DNA of 64,000 nt, taken from assembly GCA_021513695.1 (NCBI GenBank), contig CP084166.1:2048001-2112000 (forward strand). Direction: 5' to 3'. Positions within the stretch are counted from its first letter, which is position 1. Every line of letters begins with the position of its first letter. This stretch comes from Candidatus Heimdallarchaeum aukensis (lineage in GTDB: Archaea; Asgardarchaeota; Heimdallarchaeia; Heimdallarchaeales; Heimdallarchaeaceae). Positions 3,001 through 48,663 of this stretch are shown here, piece after piece. The translations under genes and the position numbers were made by a program. The notes beneath the pieces are model-generated. The model worked only from the letters and a program-made list of their open reading frames with translations, was not told where the DNA came from and did no database searches.

Positions 3001-6000
3001 TATTCCTTATCGCGGATTCAAAACCTACGGTTCGGAACCTAAACCAGAAGAGACTCATCACCCACGTTTCTCTAGTTATGTGGACTTCAAATATAGTCTA
3101 GTTATGTTTTGGGGATTAATCTTAGGTAATAGTGCAGGCTGTGGAATACCTAAAAATTCTGTCTCTCTGTTTAGCGAGAGTGAGAGAACTGGAAAACTCT
3201 TGATGATTGACGAATTATGGGATAAAGCTATTAAACACTGGAACTTGGCAGATAAAAGTAGAATAGATGATCCTAGCGAATATTTGCCCTATACTGACCG
3301 AGCTGTAGTAGACAAAATACTGTTTGACGCCAGAGTAAGAGGAGATGAAGCTATGATCGACTGGATAACAAATGAAGATTATAGTGCTGAGGCTTATTAC
3401 ATGCAACCCTATGGAGTGGATTATTCGATCTATTACTGGTTGAAGGCTTTTACTATTCAACAAGGATATGACCCTTATGCTATCAAGGTTTACACCATTG
3501 AAGAGATGAATAGTCAAGAGAGAGAAGATTTTGACGAAAATTATTTTGTTATAGGCGTTCCTGTTTCCACAATCGAAGACCAATATTTAGAATATAACTG
3601 GTTTGTAAGTCTAGATAAAGAAACACGTGTGCCCACTTCTGCTACATCACAACTAATAGACTTTATCCCTCTTGTATTCGGTCAAAGTTCTAATCCACAT
3701 ATAAGAACAATGATGAAAATAATTAAAAGATTAGGAAATGCAGCAAAAGGAGAAAATTTCGGTTATAATACTTTTAGCATGAGTGAATTCAGCTTAATCG
3801 TTACTTTAGAATTTTTAGTTAATCTTGTAGATATAGGCGCTTTACTTATTGATATCAGAGATGCCTATATAGGAGCTACTCCTTTCATACGCAAAATGTC
3901 GCTCATGCAAATACCAATGGATATACTAGATTTGTTCACTCCAGGACCTTTTTCTCTCGTAGGAAATACAATGAATAAAATTTTCAAATCTATAGTCGGA
4001 GACGTTACCTTAGAAGTAAATAGGATAACAAAAACATTTAATTTACTAGATATTGTACAAAATTTCCCAAAAGGAGAGTGGAAAAGCATTGCTCGAGCAG
4101 CAGGAAAATCAGAACTAATGATCTGGATAGTTGGAGCAGCACAAGTGACTTACCGTTTCTCTAAACTAGCCAATCAATTCTATCAATGGTTCTTCTTCCT
4201 CCCGCAAAAGATTTTCATGAGTAGTTTACAAATAACTTTAGGGTCATTCATGATATTTGCCTCTAAAATGATTTATGCCATCAGAAGAATGGATATCGAA
4301 GAAGCAATGTTGTTAAACATTAAAGCGCAAAAATACTTCAACCAAGGACTAGATGATACCGCTAAAATGACAAGAGCTATATTAAGCCATCCAAAAATGC
4401 TAGCAAGATTTGGAACTGAAGAACTTATAGAACGAGCAAATATAGTAGCAAAATATTACATGAACATTATTATAAAGAAAGTAATGGAATTGGAAGCAAC
4501 ATCAAAAGCAATACTAGAATCGGTTGAAAAGTCACGCTTCTATGTTATGATGGCCTTAAGATATGCTACACATATGTACATGAACACCCCAGGAGGAGTA
4601 GGTATACACTTCTCTCCCAATTTAATTGATAATGAGAAAGAAACTGAAGGAATAAGACATTTCAACACCGTGGATAATATTTTGCCAAAATTAGAATATG
4701 AAATAGCAATGTATTACTGGAAGCATGAATATCTAGCGGATGATGAAAAAATAAAAGAGTATAATAGTGAAAAATTCAATTTCAGAGATGTAGAAAGCGC
4801 AAAAATACATATAACTATAGCTTTTTCATCTATTGCTGCAATACATTCGACACCAGAATCATTCCAAAGATATAAAGAACTACTAGAATACACAGATAAG
4901 AGGTTAATAGAAATAAAAAATGAAAAGGGTGAAAATCTAGAGTATACACCTATATGGTGGATTTTACATTTGCCTGTTGATCCCTCGCTACAAAAACTAG
5001 CCCTTAGCCACATATTTGATGAATCACCTGCAGTTTCACTGCTTCTAAAAGTTCTAATGGTAGAGAAAGGTCTTAACGAAGACTTATTAGAAAATAATAT
5101 CGACGATATAGATGAATACAATAAAGAAGTTCATTCCATTTTAGATCAAATTTTATCTTCTTCCCCCCTAAATATAAGTCATAAAGTCTTTATCCTTGAA
5201 AAAGATGAAAAAGGGAATCATATCTGGAAAGCAAGAATTTTAGATTTGTTAGGGCAATCTGAAGGATCATTAACTAAGTTAAGGACACGAGATGAATATA
5301 TTAAGTGGTCTGTAATCGGTAGAACAGGAATAGACTTGTTAGGCCTTTTCGGAAGTGAAGAATTAAAAAACTATTTTCCCAAAGGAGTAAGAAATGCTTT
5401 AACTGCTAGAAATGATCAAACTTCAATAATCTATGAGCTTATATGTATGGGATTATTAGATTTTAGATTTTATACAGATGATAAAAATGTAAAGGATCAA
5501 TTAAAAATTGATTTTCCAGAGCATGACTTTGAAAAAGAACCCAGTATTAGCATTGCTGAATTAGCTAAAAAATATAGTAAATATGATATTCTAGAATTAT
5601 TTGAAAAAAGTAATTTTATTAGACAGACTCTTATAAGTAATGGAGTAGACGGATTAATACACAGTACAAAAATAGGAAAGTCTCTTTATTCTGTTAAAGA
5701 TTCAACGGGAATATTCAATAAAGCTAATTCAAAAAATATTTTATACTCTGTAGCAGCTGAAAATGCATATATAGGTCATGGAAGTGTTATTTATTATTAT
5801 GATAAGCTACAAGGTGATATTATCACGGATATAGATAATAAATTGATATACAATGCTAGATATTATGATCCTACAGCTTCAAAATCACCTAAACCTTTTG
5901 TTCCAGGCGATGCAATATTACTCTATGATTCCAATGTAAATCGTTATCTGTTTTTAAGAACTAATTTTCCTGAGGACACTATGCTAAATCAAAATCAGAA

Positions 6001-18200: not shown

Positions 18201-18277
18201 GGCGGGGTAGTCTAGCTTGGTATGGCCCCTGGTTTGGGACCAGGTGATCAGGAGTTCAAGTCTCCTCTCCGCCACCA
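18201..18277 (+). tRNA. tRNA-Pro(UGG), CCA encoded
   Basis: Acceptor GGCGGGG/CTCCGCC, anticodon arm CCTGG-TTTGGGA-CCAGG, T arm GGAGTTCAAGTCTCC, then ACCA. Confidence 0.9.
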
Positions 18278-18425
18278 TTTTCCTTTGTTTTGAGGCTTTT
18301 TCAGTTCTTTCTTCTGGGAAGATATGCATATTTTACTATTTGAATAAATAATCTAATTATTATGACCAATAATTGTTAGCTCATATTCACTGTATTCTCG
18401 TAACTAACAACAAAAAAACGCTTTG

Positions 18426-19178: not shown

Positions 19179-19658
19179 TAAAACGAAAATCTCAATAAAT
19201 ATTTATAAATTTTATCTATTAAGAAGTATTATGACTAATTAGAACTATCTTGATAATACTCTAAAAGACTAGTTACTAAAAGTAAACAATAAACATAAAA
19301 AACAACCACACCCTAGAAAACTTAGAAAGAGAGTAGTTAAAAAGTACAGAATGGAGAGGAAGTAACCTAAACCGCAGTATAGTAAATATTGAGTAGAAAA
19401 ACCATCTATAAGCGAATTAAAAAGATAAGGAAGATACTAATAAAGAATGGTGTGTAAACACTCGGATGTATCAAAGAAGGGAAAGCGGAAGATCCACCAT
19501 AATTATCACTGATTTAATATCCTGTACTCAGTAGGACACCTAAACCTCTCAAACGGGTATCGAAGATGACAAAAGATTCTTCCATGAGAAGGTAATCCAT
19601 TTTGTTAGTAATTGACCTCTTAATCTTAATTCTCTATAAACTAATTAAAATAGGAACT

Positions 19659-19999: not shown

Positions 20000-20084
20000 G
20001 CGGGGATTGCCGAGCGGTCAAAGGCGCTGGACTTAGGATCCAGTCCTTAGTGGTTCGAGAGTTCGAATCTCTCTCCCCGCACCA
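20000..20084 (+). tRNA. tRNA-Leu(UAG), CCA encoded; integration target
   Basis: GCGGGGA-TT-GCCGAGCGGTCAAAGGC-G-CTGGA-CTTAGGA-TCCAG, then a long variable arm, then GAGAG-TTCGAAT-CTCTC-TCCCCGC-ACCA. Confidence 0.92.
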
Positions 20085-20095
20085 TTTCTTCTTTT
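20057..20095. repeat. attL core (39 bp)
   Basis: GAGAGTTCGAATCTCTCTCCCCGCACCATTTCTTCTTTT, identical to 22887-22925. Confidence 0.9.
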
Positions 20096-20098
20096 ATC

Positions 20099-20106
20099 TT
20101 TATATA
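20099..20106 (+). promoter_or_regulatory. TATA-box-like element upstream of the element ORF
   Basis: TTTATATA is centred about 26 nt upstream of ATG 20128, a spacing compatible with a leaderless archaeal transcript. Confidence 0.35.
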
Positions 20107-20127
20107 TTTCCTTTTCCTTTTTTCTTT

Positions 20128-22881
20128 ATGGTTGCTTTTTCTCCTACTTTTTCTGTTATCGATTCTTTCTCTTTTCTTCACGACCCTCAATTTGTTTTTT
20201 TACTTCAGACTTTTATTGATTCTTCCCCTGACTTTTTTTCGTTTCTTTCTCTTCTTTCTTCCTCTTCTCCCTCTTCTCTTTCTTCTTTTGTAAGGGACAT
20301 TTTTTTACTTATTTCTTTTGATGATCCTTTTTCTCTTTCTTCTTCCTCTTTTCATTTTTTTGATTCTCATTTTAATTGGAAATCTTTTCTTTCCTTTTTC
20401 CTTGATTCTTTTTCTTCCCGTAAATTTTCTCTTTGCAATTTTTCTTTATTTTATGCTCATTTTTCTTTTTTGCATTTTTCTATTCCTAATTTTTTATCTG
20501 ATTTTGCATTCTTTTTTTTATCTGATTTAGATTTTAATTTTTTATCTTCTTCCTTTTTCAGTTCTTTTTTCTCTTTTGAATCTTTTTATGATTTTTTCTT
20601 TTCTTATTTTGATTCTTTTTTACCTTCCTATCGTCTCCTTATGCGTCATCGTTTTAATTCTTCTCCTAACCATTTTTTTCCTCCTTTTCTTCCATTCCTT
20701 CGTTCTGAAGAGGTTAGCTCTTATTTTAAGTCCTTTCTGTATATTTGTGGCTTTGATAAATCTGTTTTCGGTTTTGGTTCTTCTCGTGCTAAGGTTGATC
20801 CTCGTCAATTTGCTGAGTCTTTTCAAACTTCTTGGATTAAATTGCACTTTCATTTAGACAAAATGCGTTTTCCTTTTACTCTTTCTTCTACTCGTGTTCT
20901 TTCTCTTTATCATCCTGGTCGTTATGTTTCTTCTGTTAATCCAAGTAATGGTTTTGACGATCTAATTGTTTTTTCTTCCTCCTCTTCCATTCCATCCTCT
21001 CTTTCCTCTTCTCCTTCTTCTCTTTCTTCCTTTTCTTCTCCCGTTTCTCCCTGCTTTACTATTTGTGTTATTGAGCAAAAAATGAACCATTTAGACGTTA
21101 AGCGTTTAGATAGTCCTTCTTCCTCTTCCGATTTTACGCGTTATCTCTCTTACCTTGCTAAAACCCACTTAAATCCCTTTATTCTTCTTTTACAAGCGTT
21201 TCATTATCCTGAAAAAGATAGACTTAAATTGTCCTCTCTATTGTATGATCGCTCTTTAACTTATTCTAACTCTGTTGGATTAGACTTTTTACGTAAAATC
21301 ACGAATGGTGATTTTCTATCTTCTCTTAAACTAATTGAACCTTCTTTAGATGATCAAACTATCAATAATATTCTTCGGGGTTCTATTATCCAGCACCAGC
21401 TTATTTCTTTGATTAAGTCTGGTTTTTGTTTTAAATTGGCTTTTGTTGATGGTTATTATACCGTTAAAAAGAGGTATCCTGGTGACCTGGTCTCTTCTGT
21501 TATATGTTATTATAATTGTTTAAATGGTTCTTGCGTTGAAATCCATTTTCCTTCGTCGCTATTTGAAATAAGAATAGATTCTAGGGGTCATTTTCTTGTA
21601 CCTCAGTACTCTGAATCTCAGATTTCTTCATATGCAAAGACAGAAAACGAGCTTATGGCTTATCAGGAACTCAACAATCTATTTAACACTTTACGGAGCG
21701 ATATGATTTTTAATGTAAATATTTTGTCTCTCCCTCCTTTTGAAATTGTAAAAAAAGTTAATTTATATCAAAAAAAGATTCTCTTTTTTTTACTTAATTC
21801 TAGACGAATTGCTGATTTAAGTATCTTTAACGATGGTTTTGTTAAATCTTATTTGGAAATTTTTACTTTACCAAAAACAGCTCATCGGATCAAGAGATAC
21901 TTATCCTATATACACGATTCACTTTCAATTTTTCCCTATTCGTTTTATCAGCAGTGGAATGCTCCTTTTGGCGATAGACTAAAAAACATGTTCTCTGGTT
22001 CTTTTAGTCGTGATACCCTTCTTTGTAAGCGTTTTAAAGAAAAGCTTCTTGAGTTTATTTTATCCTCTGATTATGATTTTTCCGAAATGCCTTTAGAATT
22101 TATTGAAACTAAGTTACGTCATTCACCTGATATTCAAATTTTTTTAGATTGCTATTTTAGTCAGTTTGCTCTTTATCCTGACGGTAATTTTTTACGGTTT
22201 AAACATAATAAAATTTCTTTGAAAGCTCTTGCTTTTTGGGATGAGACCAACAATCAATGGTTTTCGCTTAACAAGAAGCGTTTTTACATTTTATTGAACT
22301 TTGAAGATATTTTAGCTAATATAAGTAAGGAAGTGTCTTTTAAAGTAACAAAAAATCTTTTGCTTTTTCCTATTAAATTTAGTTTAAATAAACGCACAGG
22401 GCAGTTATCAGCTCTATTTAATACTGATTTTACTAACACTGAAGTAAACAGAATTTGGGTTGCATATCTTAAAAAATTGAAAGGAATGGATCTTTCCTTT
22501 GAGATTTTGTCCTCTTTTTCTTATGGTCAACGAAATAAGCGGAGTGGAATTGATTTATTCTATAACTGTAACCAAAAAAAGCTTTCAATATTGTTGGCAA
22601 TATTATCAGAAACTATTAAGTTGTGGAGTTTGGTTAAAGAACTTGTCCTTAACGTTGTTTATAAAAAATTAGATTCTGAAATGGATAAAATTATCTTATC
22701 TACCAAAGGAGATAAAATTGTTCTCAATGGCAAGCAATACAAAATGGTCTTACTCAATTACAATGAAAGTAATTCAAGGGTTAGGTGGTCGTTTAAACAC
22801 TACCTATTTCCTGTTGAAGGAACAATTATTGATGATTTTGTTAAAAAATGTTATTCTATTTATACTGATTTATTTTCTTAG
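20128..22881 (+). CDS. orphan protein of the tRNA-Leu element (about 917 aa; N-terminal third F/S/L-rich low complexity)
   Basis: First ATG after the tRNA in the long frame. The track start 19978 reads through the tRNA gene and is rejected. The stop lies 5 nt before attR. The C-terminal ~600 aa has ordinary composition. I recognise no recombinase or Rep motif. Confidence 0.55.
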   Translation: MVAFSPTFSVIDSFSFLHDPQFVFLLQTFIDSSPDFFSFLSLLSSSSPSSLSSFVRDIFLLISFDDPFSLSSSSFHFFDSHFNWKSFLSFFLDSFSSRKFSLCNFSLFYAHFSFLHFSIPNFLSDFAFFFLSDLDFNFLSSSFFSSFFSFESFYDFFFSYFDSFLPSYRLLMRHRFNSSPNHFFPPFLPFLRSEEVSSYFKSFLYICGFDKSVFGFGSSRAKVDPRQFAESFQTSWIKLHFHLDKMRFPFTLSSTRVLSLYHPGRYVSSVNPSNGFDDLIVFSSSSSIPSSLSSSPSSLSSFSSPVSPCFTICVIEQKMNHLDVKRLDSPSSSSDFTRYLSYLAKTHLNPFILLLQAFHYPEKDRLKLSSLLYDRSLTYSNSVGLDFLRKITNGDFLSSLKLIEPSLDDQTINNILRGSIIQHQLISLIKSGFCFKLAFVDGYYTVKKRYPGDLVSSVICYYNCLNGSCVEIHFPSSLFEIRIDSRGHFLVPQYSESQISSYAKTENELMAYQELNNLFNTLRSDMIFNVNILSLPPFEIVKKVNLYQKKILFFLLNSRRIADLSIFNDGFVKSYLEIFTLPKTAHRIKRYLSYIHDSLSIFPYSFYQQWNAPFGDRLKNMFSGSFSRDTLLCKRFKEKLLEFILSSDYDFSEMPLEFIETKLRHSPDIQIFLDCYFSQFALYPDGNFLRFKHNKISLKALAFWDETNNQWFSLNKKRFYILLNFEDILANISKEVSFKVTKNLLLFPIKFSLNKRTGQLSALFNTDFTNTEVNRIWVAYLKKLKGMDLSFEILSSFSYGQRNKRSGIDLFYNCNQKKLSILLAILSETIKLWSLVKELVLNVVYKKLDSEMDKIILSTKGDKIVLNGKQYKMVLLNYNESNSRVRWSFKHYLFPVEGTIIDDFVKKCYSIYTDLFS

Positions 22882-22886
22882 GCTTG

Positions 22887-22925
22887 GAGAGTTCGAATCT
22901 CTCTCCCCGCACCATTTCTTCTTTT
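22887..22925. repeat. attR core (39 bp)
   Basis: Identical copy of 20057-20095. Confidence 0.9.
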
Positions 22926-23012: not shown

Positions 23013-23708
23013 TTATTTTTCTCTTATTGTTCCGTAAATTCTCATATATCTTGGTTTTATTTTTTTTCTTTTGATGTATCTTTTTATTATCGTCACATCT
23101 ACTATTATTTTTACTCCTATCATTATCATCAATATTGTTTCTATTGTTCCATTGAATACCAGTAGATAAATTAGGAATTCTTCATCTCCTGCTGCATTAG
23201 CTATTGAAGCTATTACTGAAACAATTATTGAATAGAATCCGAATATTTGGTATAATATACTTCCCACTTTAATATCTGTTATTTTTTTTATTCTTGTTAG
23301 CATTAGATCTATTTTTCTGAATCCTATTGCTCTTGACGCTAGACTTATTAGAATCGCAAAGCTTCCGAAAACCACACTTCCTATAGTGAATGGTTTTAAT
23401 ATTTCTCCTATTGCATAAATCAACAAATATGTTCTTCCTTGCATTCCTTCCTTTCTGACGTGGTCTTTAAAGTATAGGTCTGCTATTCCTCCGAAGCTTA
23501 ATGCTATTGGTATTAAGCTTAGAGCTATTACTGCAGCAAAAATATAATCAAAAAACCAATTTACTGCTCTTAAGTATTGTATTGTCCTGTTCGACAGATT
23601 TATTGCTGCTGCTATTGTAAACAAAATGCTTCCCGTTATTGCTAAAAAAGAAAATTTGTTTATTTCTGTGTTAAATATTTTCTTCTGCTTTTCTTCGTTT
23701 GAGACCAT
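23013..23708 (-). CDS. hypothetical polytopic membrane protein (paralogue of 27285-27950)
   Basis: About 6 TM. It aligns by eye with the 27285-27950 product, for example FGFYSIIVSVIASIANA..LIYLLVFNGTIETILMIMIGVKIIVD against FGSYRIVVAIVVGIAANV..LYLIAVNATLEAIFTFIIGIKLLID. Confidence 0.65.
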   Translation of the reverse strand: MVSNEEKQKKIFNTEINKFSFLAITGSILFTIAAAINLSNRTIQYLRAVNWFFDYIFAAVIALSLIPIALSFGGIADLYFKDHVRKEGMQGRTYLLIYAIGEILKPFTIGSVVFGSFAILISLASRAIGFRKIDLMLTRIKKITDIKVGSILYQIFGFYSIIVSVIASIANAAGDEEFLIYLLVFNGTIETILMIMIGVKIIVDVTIIKRYIKRKKIKPRYMRIYGTIREK

Positions 23709-27284: not shown

Positions 27285-27950
27285 TTGGACGTTTCTCACG
27301 AAGCATTACTACCGTTAAAAATAGAATATCATTTTAAGGAAACATTCATTTGGAGCTTTTCAGGTGTAATTTTGTTATTGCTTTCTTCATTATTCAACAT
27401 CATAGACCTTTTAGTTACAAGATGGGCTTATGTCGGATGGTTCCGACAATACCTAATAAGATCAACGATGTCTATTAGCTTTCTTCCCCTTGCAATAGGT
27501 TTTGGGATGATTTTTTCTAACTTTTTTGTAGGTTTTATAAGGCGAGAAGGAGAATTAGCAAAAAATTGGCTGATTGTTTATAGTATAGCAGAAATGGTCT
27601 CGCTTTTTACATTAAGTACAATAGTATTAGGTGCGTTTACTCTGCTAGCAATTATTTTCGGTAAATTGATAGCATTTATTTACTTAGACAGAGTTTTTTT
27701 GAAACTTAAAAAAAATGATGAGGTAAAGATAAATTTTAGTTTAATTTATCCGCTTTTTGGCTCCTACAGGATAGTAGTAGCTATAGTTGTAGGAATAGCA
27801 GCAAATGTAAGAGATTATGAAACAGAGCTATATTTGATAGCTGTAAATGCAACACTAGAAGCAATTTTTACCTTTATTATAGGAATAAAGTTGTTAATAG
27901 ACCTACTTAAAATTCGTTCTTATATAAATAGTAAAAGAAAGAAAAAATGA
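27285..27950 (+). CDS. hypothetical polytopic membrane protein (paralogue of 23013-23708)
   Basis: See 23013-23708. TTG start as given in the track. Confidence 0.6.
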   Translation: MDVSHEALLPLKIEYHFKETFIWSFSGVILLLLSSLFNIIDLLVTRWAYVGWFRQYLIRSTMSISFLPLAIGFGMIFSNFFVGFIRREGELAKNWLIVYSIAEMVSLFTLSTIVLGAFTLLAIIFGKLIAFIYLDRVFLKLKKNDEVKINFSLIYPLFGSYRIVVAIVVGIAANVRDYETELYLIAVNATLEAIFTFIIGIKLLIDLLKIRSYINSKRKKK

Positions 27951-47626: not shown

Positions 47627-48622
47627 TTGGCTATCTTATCTGGTGGTGATTCGAAGCGTTATAAGCAGAAAGGTAAACTTATAGATAAAGCATTAATGGA
47701 AGTAAATACCAAGCCTCTGCTTTTTAAAATAGTTGAAGATGGTCTTAATAATTACGACAATGTTATTGTATCCCTGAACAACAATAAAAGGAAAAAAAAG
47801 TATGAAAGTGTATTAAAACCCCTACTGAAAAGCGATAATGTTGAGTTTGTTGAAGATGATAAAGAAATTAATTTTATTGGAGTAGGAAAGGGAATTGCTT
47901 CTGTACTATTGAAATTATTGCCAAAAACTTCAATCCAATTCATTCCTTGTGATCGCCCTTACCTTGATGTGAAATTACTAAGACAGTTAGAGACAGTAAA
48001 AGAGGGAGTAACAATACTTATTTATCAAAGTGGATTGATTGAGCCACTGCTTGCTCTATATGCTGAAAACTATGCATTTCCTCCACTCTTTGTTTTTTCT
48101 TTTGATCTAAGCAGAGCTGACGTGTTTATCCGCTTAGCTCCTCGAATCAGGCTTTATAATGCAACAGAAATAATTGAGATGAATGATCTCAGATCTAGTT
48201 TTTTCTTAAATGTAAACACTCCAAGGTTAACAGCTTCAGACCTCTCTTTAGAAAAAGAGAAATATTTCTTACCAAAATCTAAAATTGTGGAAAGAAAAAA
48301 TCTTGAACCTCTTGATAGTATCGATTTAGATGGTGATCCTACAGAGAGAATTCACCATTTGATTGAAAGAGAACACTTTTTTTTAGCATTCTTAGTAACA
48401 AAATACCTATTTCGAAGTCAAGTTTTTGACTTTGACCTCTTTTCTTACTATGTCAACTTAACACTAAAGTCAGAGTACGAATATTGGATGGAGAAAAATA
48501 TACCTTTCTTAGGATTACATGCGCTGCAAGATTTATCACATACTTTTCAGAATAATGTGTCTAATGAAATTGACAATGAAATAAAGACTCTAAAAGAAAA
48601 AATAGGTATAAAAAAGAAATAA
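47627..48622 (+). CDS. MobA-like nucleotidyltransferase domain protein (molybdenum cofactor guanylyltransferase-like) with C-terminal extension
   Basis: The N-terminal AILSGGDSKRYK..DKALMEVNTKPLL resembles the MobA/NTP_transf_3 start. The gene is adjacent to a molybdopterin formate dehydrogenase. TTG start. Confidence 0.55.
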   Translation: MAILSGGDSKRYKQKGKLIDKALMEVNTKPLLFKIVEDGLNNYDNVIVSLNNNKRKKKYESVLKPLLKSDNVEFVEDDKEINFIGVGKGIASVLLKLLPKTSIQFIPCDRPYLDVKLLRQLETVKEGVTILIYQSGLIEPLLALYAENYAFPPLFVFSFDLSRADVFIRLAPRIRLYNATEIIEMNDLRSSFFLNVNTPRLTASDLSLEKEKYFLPKSKIVERKNLEPLDSIDLDGDPTERIHHLIEREHFFLAFLVTKYLFRSQVFDFDLFSYYVNLTLKSEYEYWMEKNIPFLGLHALQDLSHTFQNNVSNEIDNEIKTLKEKIGIKKK

Positions 48623-48663
48623 AGACTCTAAAAGAAAAAATAGGTATAAAAAAGAAATAAAGA
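48581..48663. repeat. 38-bp tandem duplication (2 copies plus 7 nt) spanning a stop codon
   Basis: ATAAAGACTCTAAAAGAAAAAATAGGTATAAAAAAGAA occurs at 48581-48618 and again at 48619-48656, followed by ATAAAGA. Confidence 0.85.

Follow-up and report, generated by a model that had tools for sequence, protein, structure and literature searches.

A 2.8 kb insert in a tRNA-Leu(UAG) gene of Candidatus Heimdallarchaeum aukensis raises the question of how a segment with one gene only, and no recognizable integrase, entered the 3' end of a tRNA gene. We analyzed the surrounding window, a 64,000 nt stretch of CP084166.1 (GCA_021513695.1; positions 2,048,001-2,112,000, forward strand), and compared the insert with related sequences at the same site and with distant relatives elsewhere. 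With somewhat better than even confidence, we conclude that it is a minimal integrative element from a Heimdallarchaeial family not described before, and that its gene most likely encodes the integration enzyme.

The insert in tRNA-Leu and its gene

The 39-mer GAGAGTTCGAATCTCTCTCCCCGCACCATTTCTTCTTTT occurs exactly twice, without mismatches (0 matches in 100 shuffles), and the two copies bracket one long ORF. The preliminary description of the locus had reported this arrangement, and had the first copy spanning the T arm, the 3' acceptor strand, the CCA and 11 nt downstream; both statements are borne out, the tRNA having been placed with ARAGORN (Table 1). The orthologous tRNA gene in one related locus (L003) scores 59 bits against the Rfam tRNA family. 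The tRNA-Leu is kept intact, with its 3' part supplied or duplicated by the insert, and the resulting direct-repeat-flanked duplication of the tRNA 3' half is the attL/attR arrangement of tyrosine-recombinase elements. L003, L004 and L005, the only other loci that extend to the attL core, have it in identical form, and the attR core has one mismatch in L005 and L006. Similarity to the tRNA extends imperfectly beyond the attR core (CTTAGGCTTG versus CTTAGTGGTTC of the variable arm; 94% over 50 nt by BLAST) into the end of the ORF, which stops 5 nt short of the second repeat copy. The window has no other copy of the element or the ORF, nor of the CRISPR repeat discussed below.

The TATA-like box to which the preliminary description drew attention, TTTATATA, is conserved in every copy examined and is separated from the ATG by 21 nt; the ATGs of the homologues are likewise preceded by AT-rich, TATA-like sequence. 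Its position fits an archaeal promoter of a leaderless mRNA, and we predict that it may drive such a transcript. We could not uphold a second proposal, that in an excised circle an ORF starting at an ATG at 22718 would run across attP, as in SSV-type elements. Position 22718 holds a TTG codon, with the first ATG of the frame at 22727; the stretch overlaps the 3' end of the long ORF, and there is no similarity to SSV integrases. The frame shared by the two att copies is uninformative, since no stop codon interrupts any of the three frames between the core and the ATG.

Table 1. Coordinates in the window of the tRNA-Leu gene, the insert and its parts.
Feature	Position	Strand	Basis
tRNA-Leu(UAG), integration target	20000..20084	+	ARAGORN (tRNA-Leu(tag))
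attL core: T arm, 3' acceptor strand, CCA, 11 nt downstream	20057..20095	+	exact 39-mer
TATA-like box TTTATATA	20099..20106	+	sequence; invariant in all copies examined
Single gene, proposed integration enzyme	20128..22881	+	ORF list, GenBank identity, pN/pS, family membership
N-terminal extension, Ser/Phe/Leu-rich	20128..20640	+	composition, in-frame substitution pattern
Nuclease-like signature FAE (E230), GFDD (D277, D278), IEQK (E316, K318)	20809..21081	+	residue invariance
Segment replaced in the short allele by 435 bp with mini-CRISPR array	20833..22762	+	BLAST breakpoints
Protospacer of spacer S1	21384..21419	+	32/35 identity, E 2e-8
Imperfect tRNA-like attR extension, overlapping the ORF stop codon	22877..22886	+	BLAST extension and sequence
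attR core, displaced copy of the tRNA 3' part	22887..22925	+	exact 39-mer

From its first ATG the ORF encodes 917 aa; the GenBank annotation (K9W45_09175) has 746 aa, starting at 20641. Comparison with the full-length allele L004 over aa 236-699 gives pS 0.070 and pN 0.019 (pN/pS 0.26), and the ratios lie at about 0.2-0.26. These values show that the ORF is a genuine gene, maintained by purifying selection. The N-terminal extension, the DNA of which is 61% T, shows a synonymous excess in the ORF frame only (pS 0.077, pN 0.014), and its indels of 9 nt and 18 nt preserve the frame. It is missing from the distant homologues and does not align to them.

Searches of Pfam, PHROG, NCBIfam, PADLOC and PDB by sequence and profile, using the ORF, its homologues and the N-terminal domain, gave no usable match. 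The structural comparison proposed in the preliminary description was equally unproductive: the predicted structure of the ORF product has no usable fold match, and a PD-(D/E)xK fold is unconfirmed. Its observation that no integrase, recombinase or primase-polymerase motif can be recognized agrees with our database searches, which detected no recombinase, Rep or primase family in the ORF. Neither the ORF nor its homologues gave a match to the Phage_integrase fold with its R-K-H-R-H/W-Y residues (Pfam, PHROGs, NCBIfam and PDB), and the HxxR...Y pattern is absent among the invariant residues of the family. A HUH reading of HFH in KLHFHLDK was rejected, as the motif is not conserved in the homologues. 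Invariant in the five full-length members, along with other conserved residues, are E, D, D, E and K in the order E...D...ExK. The residues E68, D112, D113, E130 and K132 of homologue P0003 correspond to those listed in Table 1 for the window ORF, where a S-rich low-complexity insert lies between the D and the ExK. The family thus has the E...(P)D...(D/E)xK residues of PD-(D/E)xK enzymes, which suggests that the N-terminal domain works by nuclease-type chemistry; target recognition may fall to the large C-terminal part.

Relatives at other targets

The family was revealed by an exhaustive HMMER search, whereas word-indexed protein searches were swamped by the low-complexity part and returned almost only self-matches. 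The search for further copies, advised in the preliminary description, gave six relatives, all from Heimdall-group MAGs or metagenome contigs, which align to the ORF over about 650 aa and include chromosomal homologues in other Heimdall genomes. The family is small and confined to Heimdall-group archaea and, as far as visible, single-copy per genome. Scans of viral collections with the family proteins gave no matches.

Two distant members are also solitary genes between duplicated 3' ends of a target, each at another type of target. At the fumarase site (L038, L039), the P0006 gene (2875-5595) lies after the end of the fumarase-beta gene and before a repeat of its final 46 codons (5712-5849), which stops 4 nt before the alpha gene. 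The two ends share 73% amino-acid identity (tblastn E 1.9e-17), with pS 0.87 and pN 0.18. Thus, each of them has evolved as functional coding sequence, the two in different lineages, and one duplicated target end is shown to be of foreign origin. At the other site (L042, L043), direct repeats of 65 bp (61/65 and 62/65 identity) enclose the P0016 gene (697-2874) where a conserved, RNA-like non-coding region downstream of PAC2 ends. The conserved region upstream of P0016 and P0003 has no match in Rfam.

The layout is common to the three sites: a repeat, 32-106 nt, the ORF reading away from the target, 5-116 nt, and a repeat, for a total of 2.3-3.1 kb. No downstream repeat was detectable at the P0003 and P0010 loci. 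The targets seen (tRNA-Leu, the fumarase-beta gene and the RNA-like non-coding region) are unrelated, and the gene is the sole component common to the inserts, which makes it the most likely candidate for the integration enzyme. The preliminary description had suggested that the ORF may be a novel recombinase. This suggestion gains from the finding of distant homologues, alone between duplicated target ends, at two other types of site; that the protein would catalyze integration, and by what chemistry, we infer.

We propose that a member of the family consists of little beyond one large gene, preceded by a short spacer with the promoter and followed by another short spacer on the 3' side. The element would enter a gene at the 3' end and bring its own copy of that end, leaving the target functional and pushing the original end to the far side, where the two copies would be seen as attL and attR.

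Occupancy and the short allele

The insert is present, with the same att cores, in all five of the related sequences. The flanks are 95-97% identical and the left part of the element 89-95%. An empty site (tRNA-Leu(UAG) followed directly by CTTTTGTTTTC) and a circular junction were sought, as had been advised, and neither was found in the related sequences or in the metagenome and viral contigs scanned with the 39-mer core. The Logan contigs of SRR15988954 (k=31) break inside the 39-bp repeat, so that integrated, empty and circular states are indistinguishable there. Given full occupancy and the lack of an empty site or circular junction, current mobility of the window copy is unproven; the insert is old and may no longer move. 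The preliminary description held that fixation in all relatives with identical flanks, with neither empty site nor junction, or a lack of coding signal in the ORF, would speak against an integrated element. The first is partly what the five sequences show; the coding signal is present.

Integrase-less islands flanked by att repeats do arise by decay in Heimdallarchaeum, as at a tRNA-Pro gene of H. endolithica.

Three of the five related sequences (L003, L005 and L006) carry a short allele in which 1.93 kb of the ORF is replaced, with the same breakpoints in each by BLAST. The replacement contains a mini-CRISPR array of two perfect 30-nt repeats and two degenerate ones, spaced at 65-66 nt, with two spacers. 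The 22-nt core of the repeat is found in metagenome arrays of up to 117 repeats, and the AT-rich contigs L019, L027 and L028 carry a variant differing by 1 nt. No cas genes were found among the genes called in the ~9 kb of L005 downstream of the array. The degenerate repeats are on the 5' side in the transcription orientation of the repeat, an atypical polarity, and no recognizable leader was identified.

Spacer S1 matches the window at 21385-21419 (32/35) and the full-length allele L004 at 34/36, with all differences from the protospacer at synonymous third-codon positions. The protospacer, flanked by CCA, codes for the best-conserved motif in the family (IIQHQLISLIK), and this region is deleted in the three short alleles. 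The gene is thus treated as foreign. The only match of spacer S2 (23/26 with a 1-nt gap, in the gene next to P0003) was judged to be due to chance. Like the mini-arrays described by Medvedeva et al. (2019), this one has no more than two spacers between bona fide repeats, no cas genes among those called next to it in L005, and a target that is found in a close relative and absent from the carrier. The putative enzyme gene has been gutted in the three sequences and the array put in its place; a gutted gene together with an array aimed at its motif fits CRISPR-based exclusion of intact elements.

Alternative explanations and known systems

The insert might instead be a relic or a non-autonomous islet, with the 39-bp duplication made by a conventional tyrosine integrase that was since lost (with a larger ancestor, or acting in trans) and the ORF as cargo, for example a defense or addiction gene with a nuclease domain. 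Fixation at one site in five related sequences with no empty site found is in keeping with this, as is the identity of flanks and left part, which fits vertical descent rather than recent transfer. The H. endolithica island, which lacks an integrase and has only a ParA-like fragment and a NosD-like gene between 39-nt tRNA-Pro repeats, offers a parallel, and no catalytic fold can be assigned to the ORF. However, the same family is the sole content at three unrelated targets, so that cargo would require the loss of three different integrases with the same gene spared each time, and at the fumarase site a foreign target end was imported with the family gene alone. We consider this explanation rather unlikely, although it is the strongest of the alternatives.

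We give a lower probability to a free-standing homing-type endonuclease that cuts insert-free alleles, with homologous repair then copying its gene in. The duplicated ends would in that case be part of the cassette (a recoded, resistant end and the relic of the old one) rather than products of site-specific recombination. Some homing endonucleases belong to the E...D...ExK nuclease superfamily, which the signature resembles; one member of the family sits between the genes for two subunits of the same enzyme, the pS of the functional and displaced fumarase ends indicates strong recoding, and the family is single-copy per genome. Yet homing normally leaves no target duplication, and the two tRNA-Leu copies are identical, so recoding could give no immunity there. 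The protein, at about 750-900 aa, is far larger than known homing endonucleases, and its nuclease fold is unconfirmed. Most improbable, to the point that we attach very little weight to it, is that no mobile element is involved and that a replication or repair error duplicated the tRNA 3' end beside an ordinary lineage-specific host gene. The chromosomal homologues and the fact that mobility was not seen would agree with this, but duplicated target ends recur around homologues at two other sites, the sense-strand composition of the ORF differs from that of most neighboring host genes, a CRISPR spacer is directed at the gene, and the tRNA-like extension at attR is typical of attP-derived sequence.

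We retain the reading of a minimal element with its own integration enzyme. A fuller version of it, which we put forward tentatively and hold to be somewhat short of an even chance, is that the family represents a novel class of enzymes for site-specific integration, with no sequence relationship to tyrosine and serine recombinases, DDE and HUH enzymes and Cas1, that its members are the smallest autonomous archaeal integrative elements known, and that Heimdallarchaeum lineages neutralized the element by exchanging its enzyme gene in place for a mini-CRISPR array, which "vaccinates" the att site against intact copies. To our knowledge, tyrosine recombinases (and rarely serine recombinases) are the enzymes by which elements have hitherto been seen to integrate into the 3' ends of tRNA and other genes. 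If the proposal is true, a protein of 750-900 aa, not detectably related to these recombinases and alone in an element of 2.3-3.1 kb, would carry out this reaction, and the smallest autonomous archaeal integrative element would be one gene plus a copy of the target 3' end. The enzyme, selecting its targets itself, would be a candidate for a compact tool. The host belongs to the Asgard archaea, and in these archaea, the nearest to eukaryotes, mobile elements and gene flow attract particular attention. With the short allele, conflict among mobile elements by way of CRISPR would be extended to this group, and to an att site on a chromosome; the two alleles form a concrete, testable pair: an armed element and an array aimed at it.

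In P4-like islands, the pTN3/pT26-2 family and SSV-type elements, as in the insert, the tRNA 3' half is duplicated from the T arm to past the 3' end, the tRNA is kept, and the attP-derived side has extra, imperfect tRNA-like sequence. Unlike tyrosine-recombinase elements, the insert has neither a Phage_integrase-type nor a SSV-type integrase, no int gene is split by integration, and the whole element of this family is one gene in 2.3-3.1 kb. Known autonomous tRNA-integrating elements are several kb or more and carry genes besides the integrase. The prophage e14 and phage 21, multi-gene elements with a tyrosine integrase, integrate into the 3' end of icd in E. coli. As at the fumarase-beta gene (L038), they bring an alternative 3' end, keep the target functional and displace the original end, but the fumarase-beta insert has a single, unrelated protein. 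Free-standing homing endonuclease genes are, like the family, solitary selfish genes that insert within conserved genes or between them, and a nuclease signature may be common to both; the family differs in its target duplications, in a protein several times larger and in that no known homing endonuclease domain was detected.

The mobile elements of Heimdallarchaeum described by Wu et al. (2022; PMC8813620) include HeimM1 and C1 (a "territorial dispute"), aloposons and HeimV1. They share with the insert the same genomes, tRNA-adjacent integration, and a spacer in one genome that matches the element at the same locus in a sister. Aloposons are defined there by tandem giant genes of 3,000-6,000 aa with four upstream genes, including a ParA/MinD-like ATPase, and by integration at tRNA; the insert has only one 917-aa ORF, without the giant Otus and Ephialtes genes or ParA. 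The element is absent from the text and mobilome file of that study, the 95% identity cut-off of which would miss the 91% spacer match seen here. The orphan array C4 of the same study has 18 spacers and is not the mini-array.

The closest parallels to the short allele are the virus-borne mini-CRISPR arrays of the portogloboviruses SPV1 and SPV2 (Medvedeva et al., 2019; PMC6858448). All of these have two spacers, CRISPR-type repeats and no cas gene called in the flanks, and a spacer is directed at a close relative, against a locus next to the array that the carrier lacks through deletion. Unlike in SPV1 and SPV2, the degenerate repeats of the short allele are on the 5' side with no recognizable leader, the carrier is a chromosomal, att-flanked remnant rather than a virus, and the target is the element's own presumed integration gene.

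The insert at tRNA-Leu and its gene

Just two copies of the 39-mer GAGAGTTCGAATCTCTCTCCCCGCACCATTTCTTCTTTT are present in the window, where none is expected by chance. The first spans the T arm, 3' acceptor strand and CCA of a tRNA-Leu plus 11 nt downstream. The perfect att-like repeats that the preliminary description placed at this tRNA are confirmed by the exact 39-mer and by ARAGORN. Upstream of the second copy, imperfect similarity extends ~10 nt further (CTTAGGCTTG versus CTTAGTGGTTC in the tRNA), as expected if that side is derived from attP with a longer tRNA-like stretch.

The insert is occupied by one ORF of 917 aa, annotated in Ca. Heimdallarchaeum aukensis as K9W45_09175 from an internal Met at 20641 (746 aa). 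Wu et al. 2022 (PMC8813620) circularised two genomes, including this one. The element is not described in that paper, and its sequence is also missing from the paper's mobilome file. Searches of Pfam, PHROG, NCBIfam, PADLOC and PDB gave zero matches, which bears out the claim that no recognisable integrase is present. Two other details did not hold: the codon at 22718, read as ATG, is TTG, and the common frame of the att copies carries no meaning, since no stop interrupts any of the three frames between the core and the ATG.

By its coding signal, the ORF is a real gene. A Heimdallarchaeaceae MAG (L004) has a copy with 95% identity; against it, pS is 0.070 and pN 0.019 over aa 236-699. The N-terminal 171 aa are Ser-, Phe- and Leu-rich (the first 513 nt of the DNA are 61% T), and changes there are synonymous in excess in the ORF frame only; indels of 9 and 18 nt within or just past this part keep the frame. 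The sense strand is T-rich, whereas that of most neighbouring host genes is A-rich. Strand composition is extreme in the first third of the ORF (20128-21300; AT skew -0.58 over 20001-21000), which holds low-complexity S/F/L-rich inserts, one of them between the D and ExK motifs.

In all five related sequences covering this tRNA-Leu, an insert is present and the att cores are the same; an empty site was not found. The att core had no match in metagenome and viral contigs; a Logan contig simply stops within the 39-bp repeat. In the short form, 435 bp with identical breakpoints stand in place of window 20833-22762. Flanks are 95-97% identical among relatives versus 89-95% for the left part of the element, and thus the window copy looks old and vertically inherited, which by itself would favour a fixed relic.

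The stretch from tRNA-Pro to tRNA-Leu is a variable hot spot, with two NosD-like genes in Ca. H. endolithica (L003), one in L004 and none in the window. The H. endolithica pair sits in a 2.9-kb duplication (79-93% identity). In H. endolithica, an island of 2,395 bp lies between exact repeats of the tRNA-Pro(UGG) 3' end; it encodes a 198-aa ParA/MinD-like fragment and a 461-aa NosD/beta-helix protein, with no integrase, and may be an aloposon relic. Its repeats resemble those at tRNA-Leu in length (39 nt) and position in the tRNA.

Coordinates of features in the window and in related loci
Feature	Location	Remarks
tRNA-Leu(tag)	window 20000-20084	ARAGORN
First 39-mer copy (attL core)	window 20057-20095	
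TTTATATA	window 20099-20106	invariant in all copies examined
ORF	window 20128-22881	
Second 39-mer copy (attR core)	window 22887-22925	
Long form of insert	window, L004	
Short form of insert	L003; JGI contigs L005, L006	repeat spacing 1,353 bp
231-aa membrane protein	window 23013-23708 (-)	immediately beyond attR
Paralogue of 231-aa protein	window 27285-27950 (+)	4 kb off
tRNA-Pro island repeats	L003 15683-15721, 18078-18116	
Empty site for tRNA-Pro island	window 18243-18281	
Variable hot spot	L003 12802-13870, 15703-16777; L004 7310-8713; window 19410-19600	
Perfect tandem repeat	window 48578-48663	38-nt unit, 2.3 copies, 100% matches, AT-rich stretch
P0006	L038/L039 2875-5595	906 aa
Repeated fumarase-beta end	L038/L039 5712-5849	4 nt upstream of alpha start
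P0016	L042/L043 697-2874	725 aa
Gene just beyond P0016 downstream repeat	L042 2965-4146 (-)	
~410-nt non-coding region	L042 ~195-628; L029 9490-9910; L037 621-1059	downstream of PAC2 gene
Split family member	L040 3-2844	ORFs of 442 aa and 497 aa, 20 nt between
Two C-terminal family fragments	L041 2173-2580, 3974-5131	

Relatives of the gene at other targets

Six relatives of the ORF (23-36% identical, aligned over ~650 aa) emerged from an exhaustive HMMER search against 1.84 billion representatives, and those with a named source all come from Heimdall-group MAGs. The two homologue genes examined for composition (P0003 and P0006) are ordinary, with A-rich sense strands unlike the window ORF. 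One further member appears split and another locus holds fragments; both adjoin paralogous genes (333-425 aa) with no assigned function.

P0006 sits between the genes for the fumarase beta and alpha subunits, and the final 46 beta codons are repeated downstream of it. The two beta ends share 73% amino-acid identity (tblastn E 1.9e-17) and 95 of 138 nt, with a longest identical run of 8 nt. Their pS of 0.87 and pN of 0.18 indicate that both evolved as functional coding sequence in separate lineages and were joined later. On this sequence comparison, the P0006 insert carried in a foreign replacement 3' end of the beta gene, which rules out a target duplication that was made by a staggered cut and later drifted. 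The prophage e14 and phage 21 likewise carry in a foreign replacement 3' end at icd.

P0016 is flanked by 65-bp direct repeats (61/65 and 62/65 identity) located at the 3' end of a ~410-nt region. This region shows 70% conservation with the stretch upstream of P0003 in L029, has a strong predicted fold and no match in Rfam, and may be an undescribed structured RNA whose 3' end is targeted by the P0016 insert. It occurs in distant Heimdall lineages and ends in a hairpin and T-run; the fold is predicted at -117 kcal/mol for 398 nt. P0003 and P0010 occupy the same site, where the downstream repeat is undetectable. A tRNA is absent from all family loci examined other than that of the window.

The inserts at the three targets share a layout: a repeat, an AT-rich spacer of 32-106 nt, the ORF pointing away from the target, 5-116 nt and a second repeat (2.3-3.1 kb in total). 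The gene is their sole common component. Outside the inserts, the gene just beyond the P0016 downstream repeat shares a domain with the 231-aa protein beyond attR and its paralogue (48% identity over 79 aa, E 4e-20), despite the different upstream targets.

A mini-CRISPR array in the short allele

Read in ORF sense, the 435-bp replacement comprises R1, S1 (36 nt), R2, S2 (35 nt), R3 (5-6 mismatches), 120 nt, R4 (7-8 mismatches) and 122 nt, with the left breakpoint exactly at the start of R1. The repeat is GTTAAAATTGGACTAAGATAGGATTGAAAT, and arrays with as many as 117 repeats in metagenomes carry its 22-nt core. Three AT-rich JGI contigs (L019, L027 and L028; 32-35% GC) have an array repeat one base different (GTTTAAATTGGACTAAGATAGGATTGAAAT), two of them (L019 and L028) with an identical spacer in common; these may be full-size arrays of Heimdall-like hosts.

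Spacer S1 matches window 21385-21419 (32/35, E 2e-8) and L004 (34/36), and spans IIQHQLISLIK, the most conserved motif of the family. Its differences from the ORF all fall at synonymous third codon positions; thus S1 came from a working copy of the gene that had diverged slightly. Its length agrees with the 36-37 nt mode of Heimdallarchaeum arrays. In the repeat transcription orientation, which was checked on large arrays, the predicted crRNA from S1 would be antisense to the ORF mRNA, and CCA flanks the protospacer at its 5' end. Atypically, it is the 5' side that holds the degenerate repeats, and a leader is not recognisable. The mini-array is not the orphan array C4 of Wu et al., which has 18 spacers, and the match of S1 to the ORF would have escaped their 95% identity cut-off. 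The array carriers have lost the S1-matched region. Virus-borne mini-arrays show the same pattern: their target is a sequence adjoining the array that the carrier has lost (PMC6858448).

Candidate function and comparison with known elements

We moderately favour the view that the insert is an old member of a new single-gene integrative element family, its gene being the likely integration enzyme. The main rival, in which the gene is the cargo of an islet that is decayed or non-autonomous, seems rather unlikely. Integrase-less att-flanked islands do arise in the genus, as at tRNA-Pro in H. endolithica. Cargo would demand that three integrases of three specificities were all lost and the same gene spared each time. 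An enzyme is the simpler reading, and the protein itself likely performs integration; the case rests on recurrence at three targets, in few loci, rather than on the window copy alone.

Residues invariant in the five full-length members (P0003 numbering) are E68, K76, D82, R85, G110-F111-D112-D113, E130 and K132 and, further downstream, Y323, E391, Y418, Q422, W424, P498-D499-G500 and D612. Equivalents of the first group in the window ORF include E230, D277, D278, E316 and K318. PD-(D/E)xK nucleases have the same order, E...D...ExK. The protein could act by true strand exchange, as supported by the identical 39-bp and near-identical 65-bp repeats, or by homing-like cleavage and repair, which would suit both its nuclease-like signature and the location of one insert between two subunit genes.

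Integration at the 3' ends of genes, forming attL and attR, is behaviour of an already known kind. What would be new is the enzyme and the one-gene format, together with the replacement of the element in place by a CRISPR mini-array directed at it.
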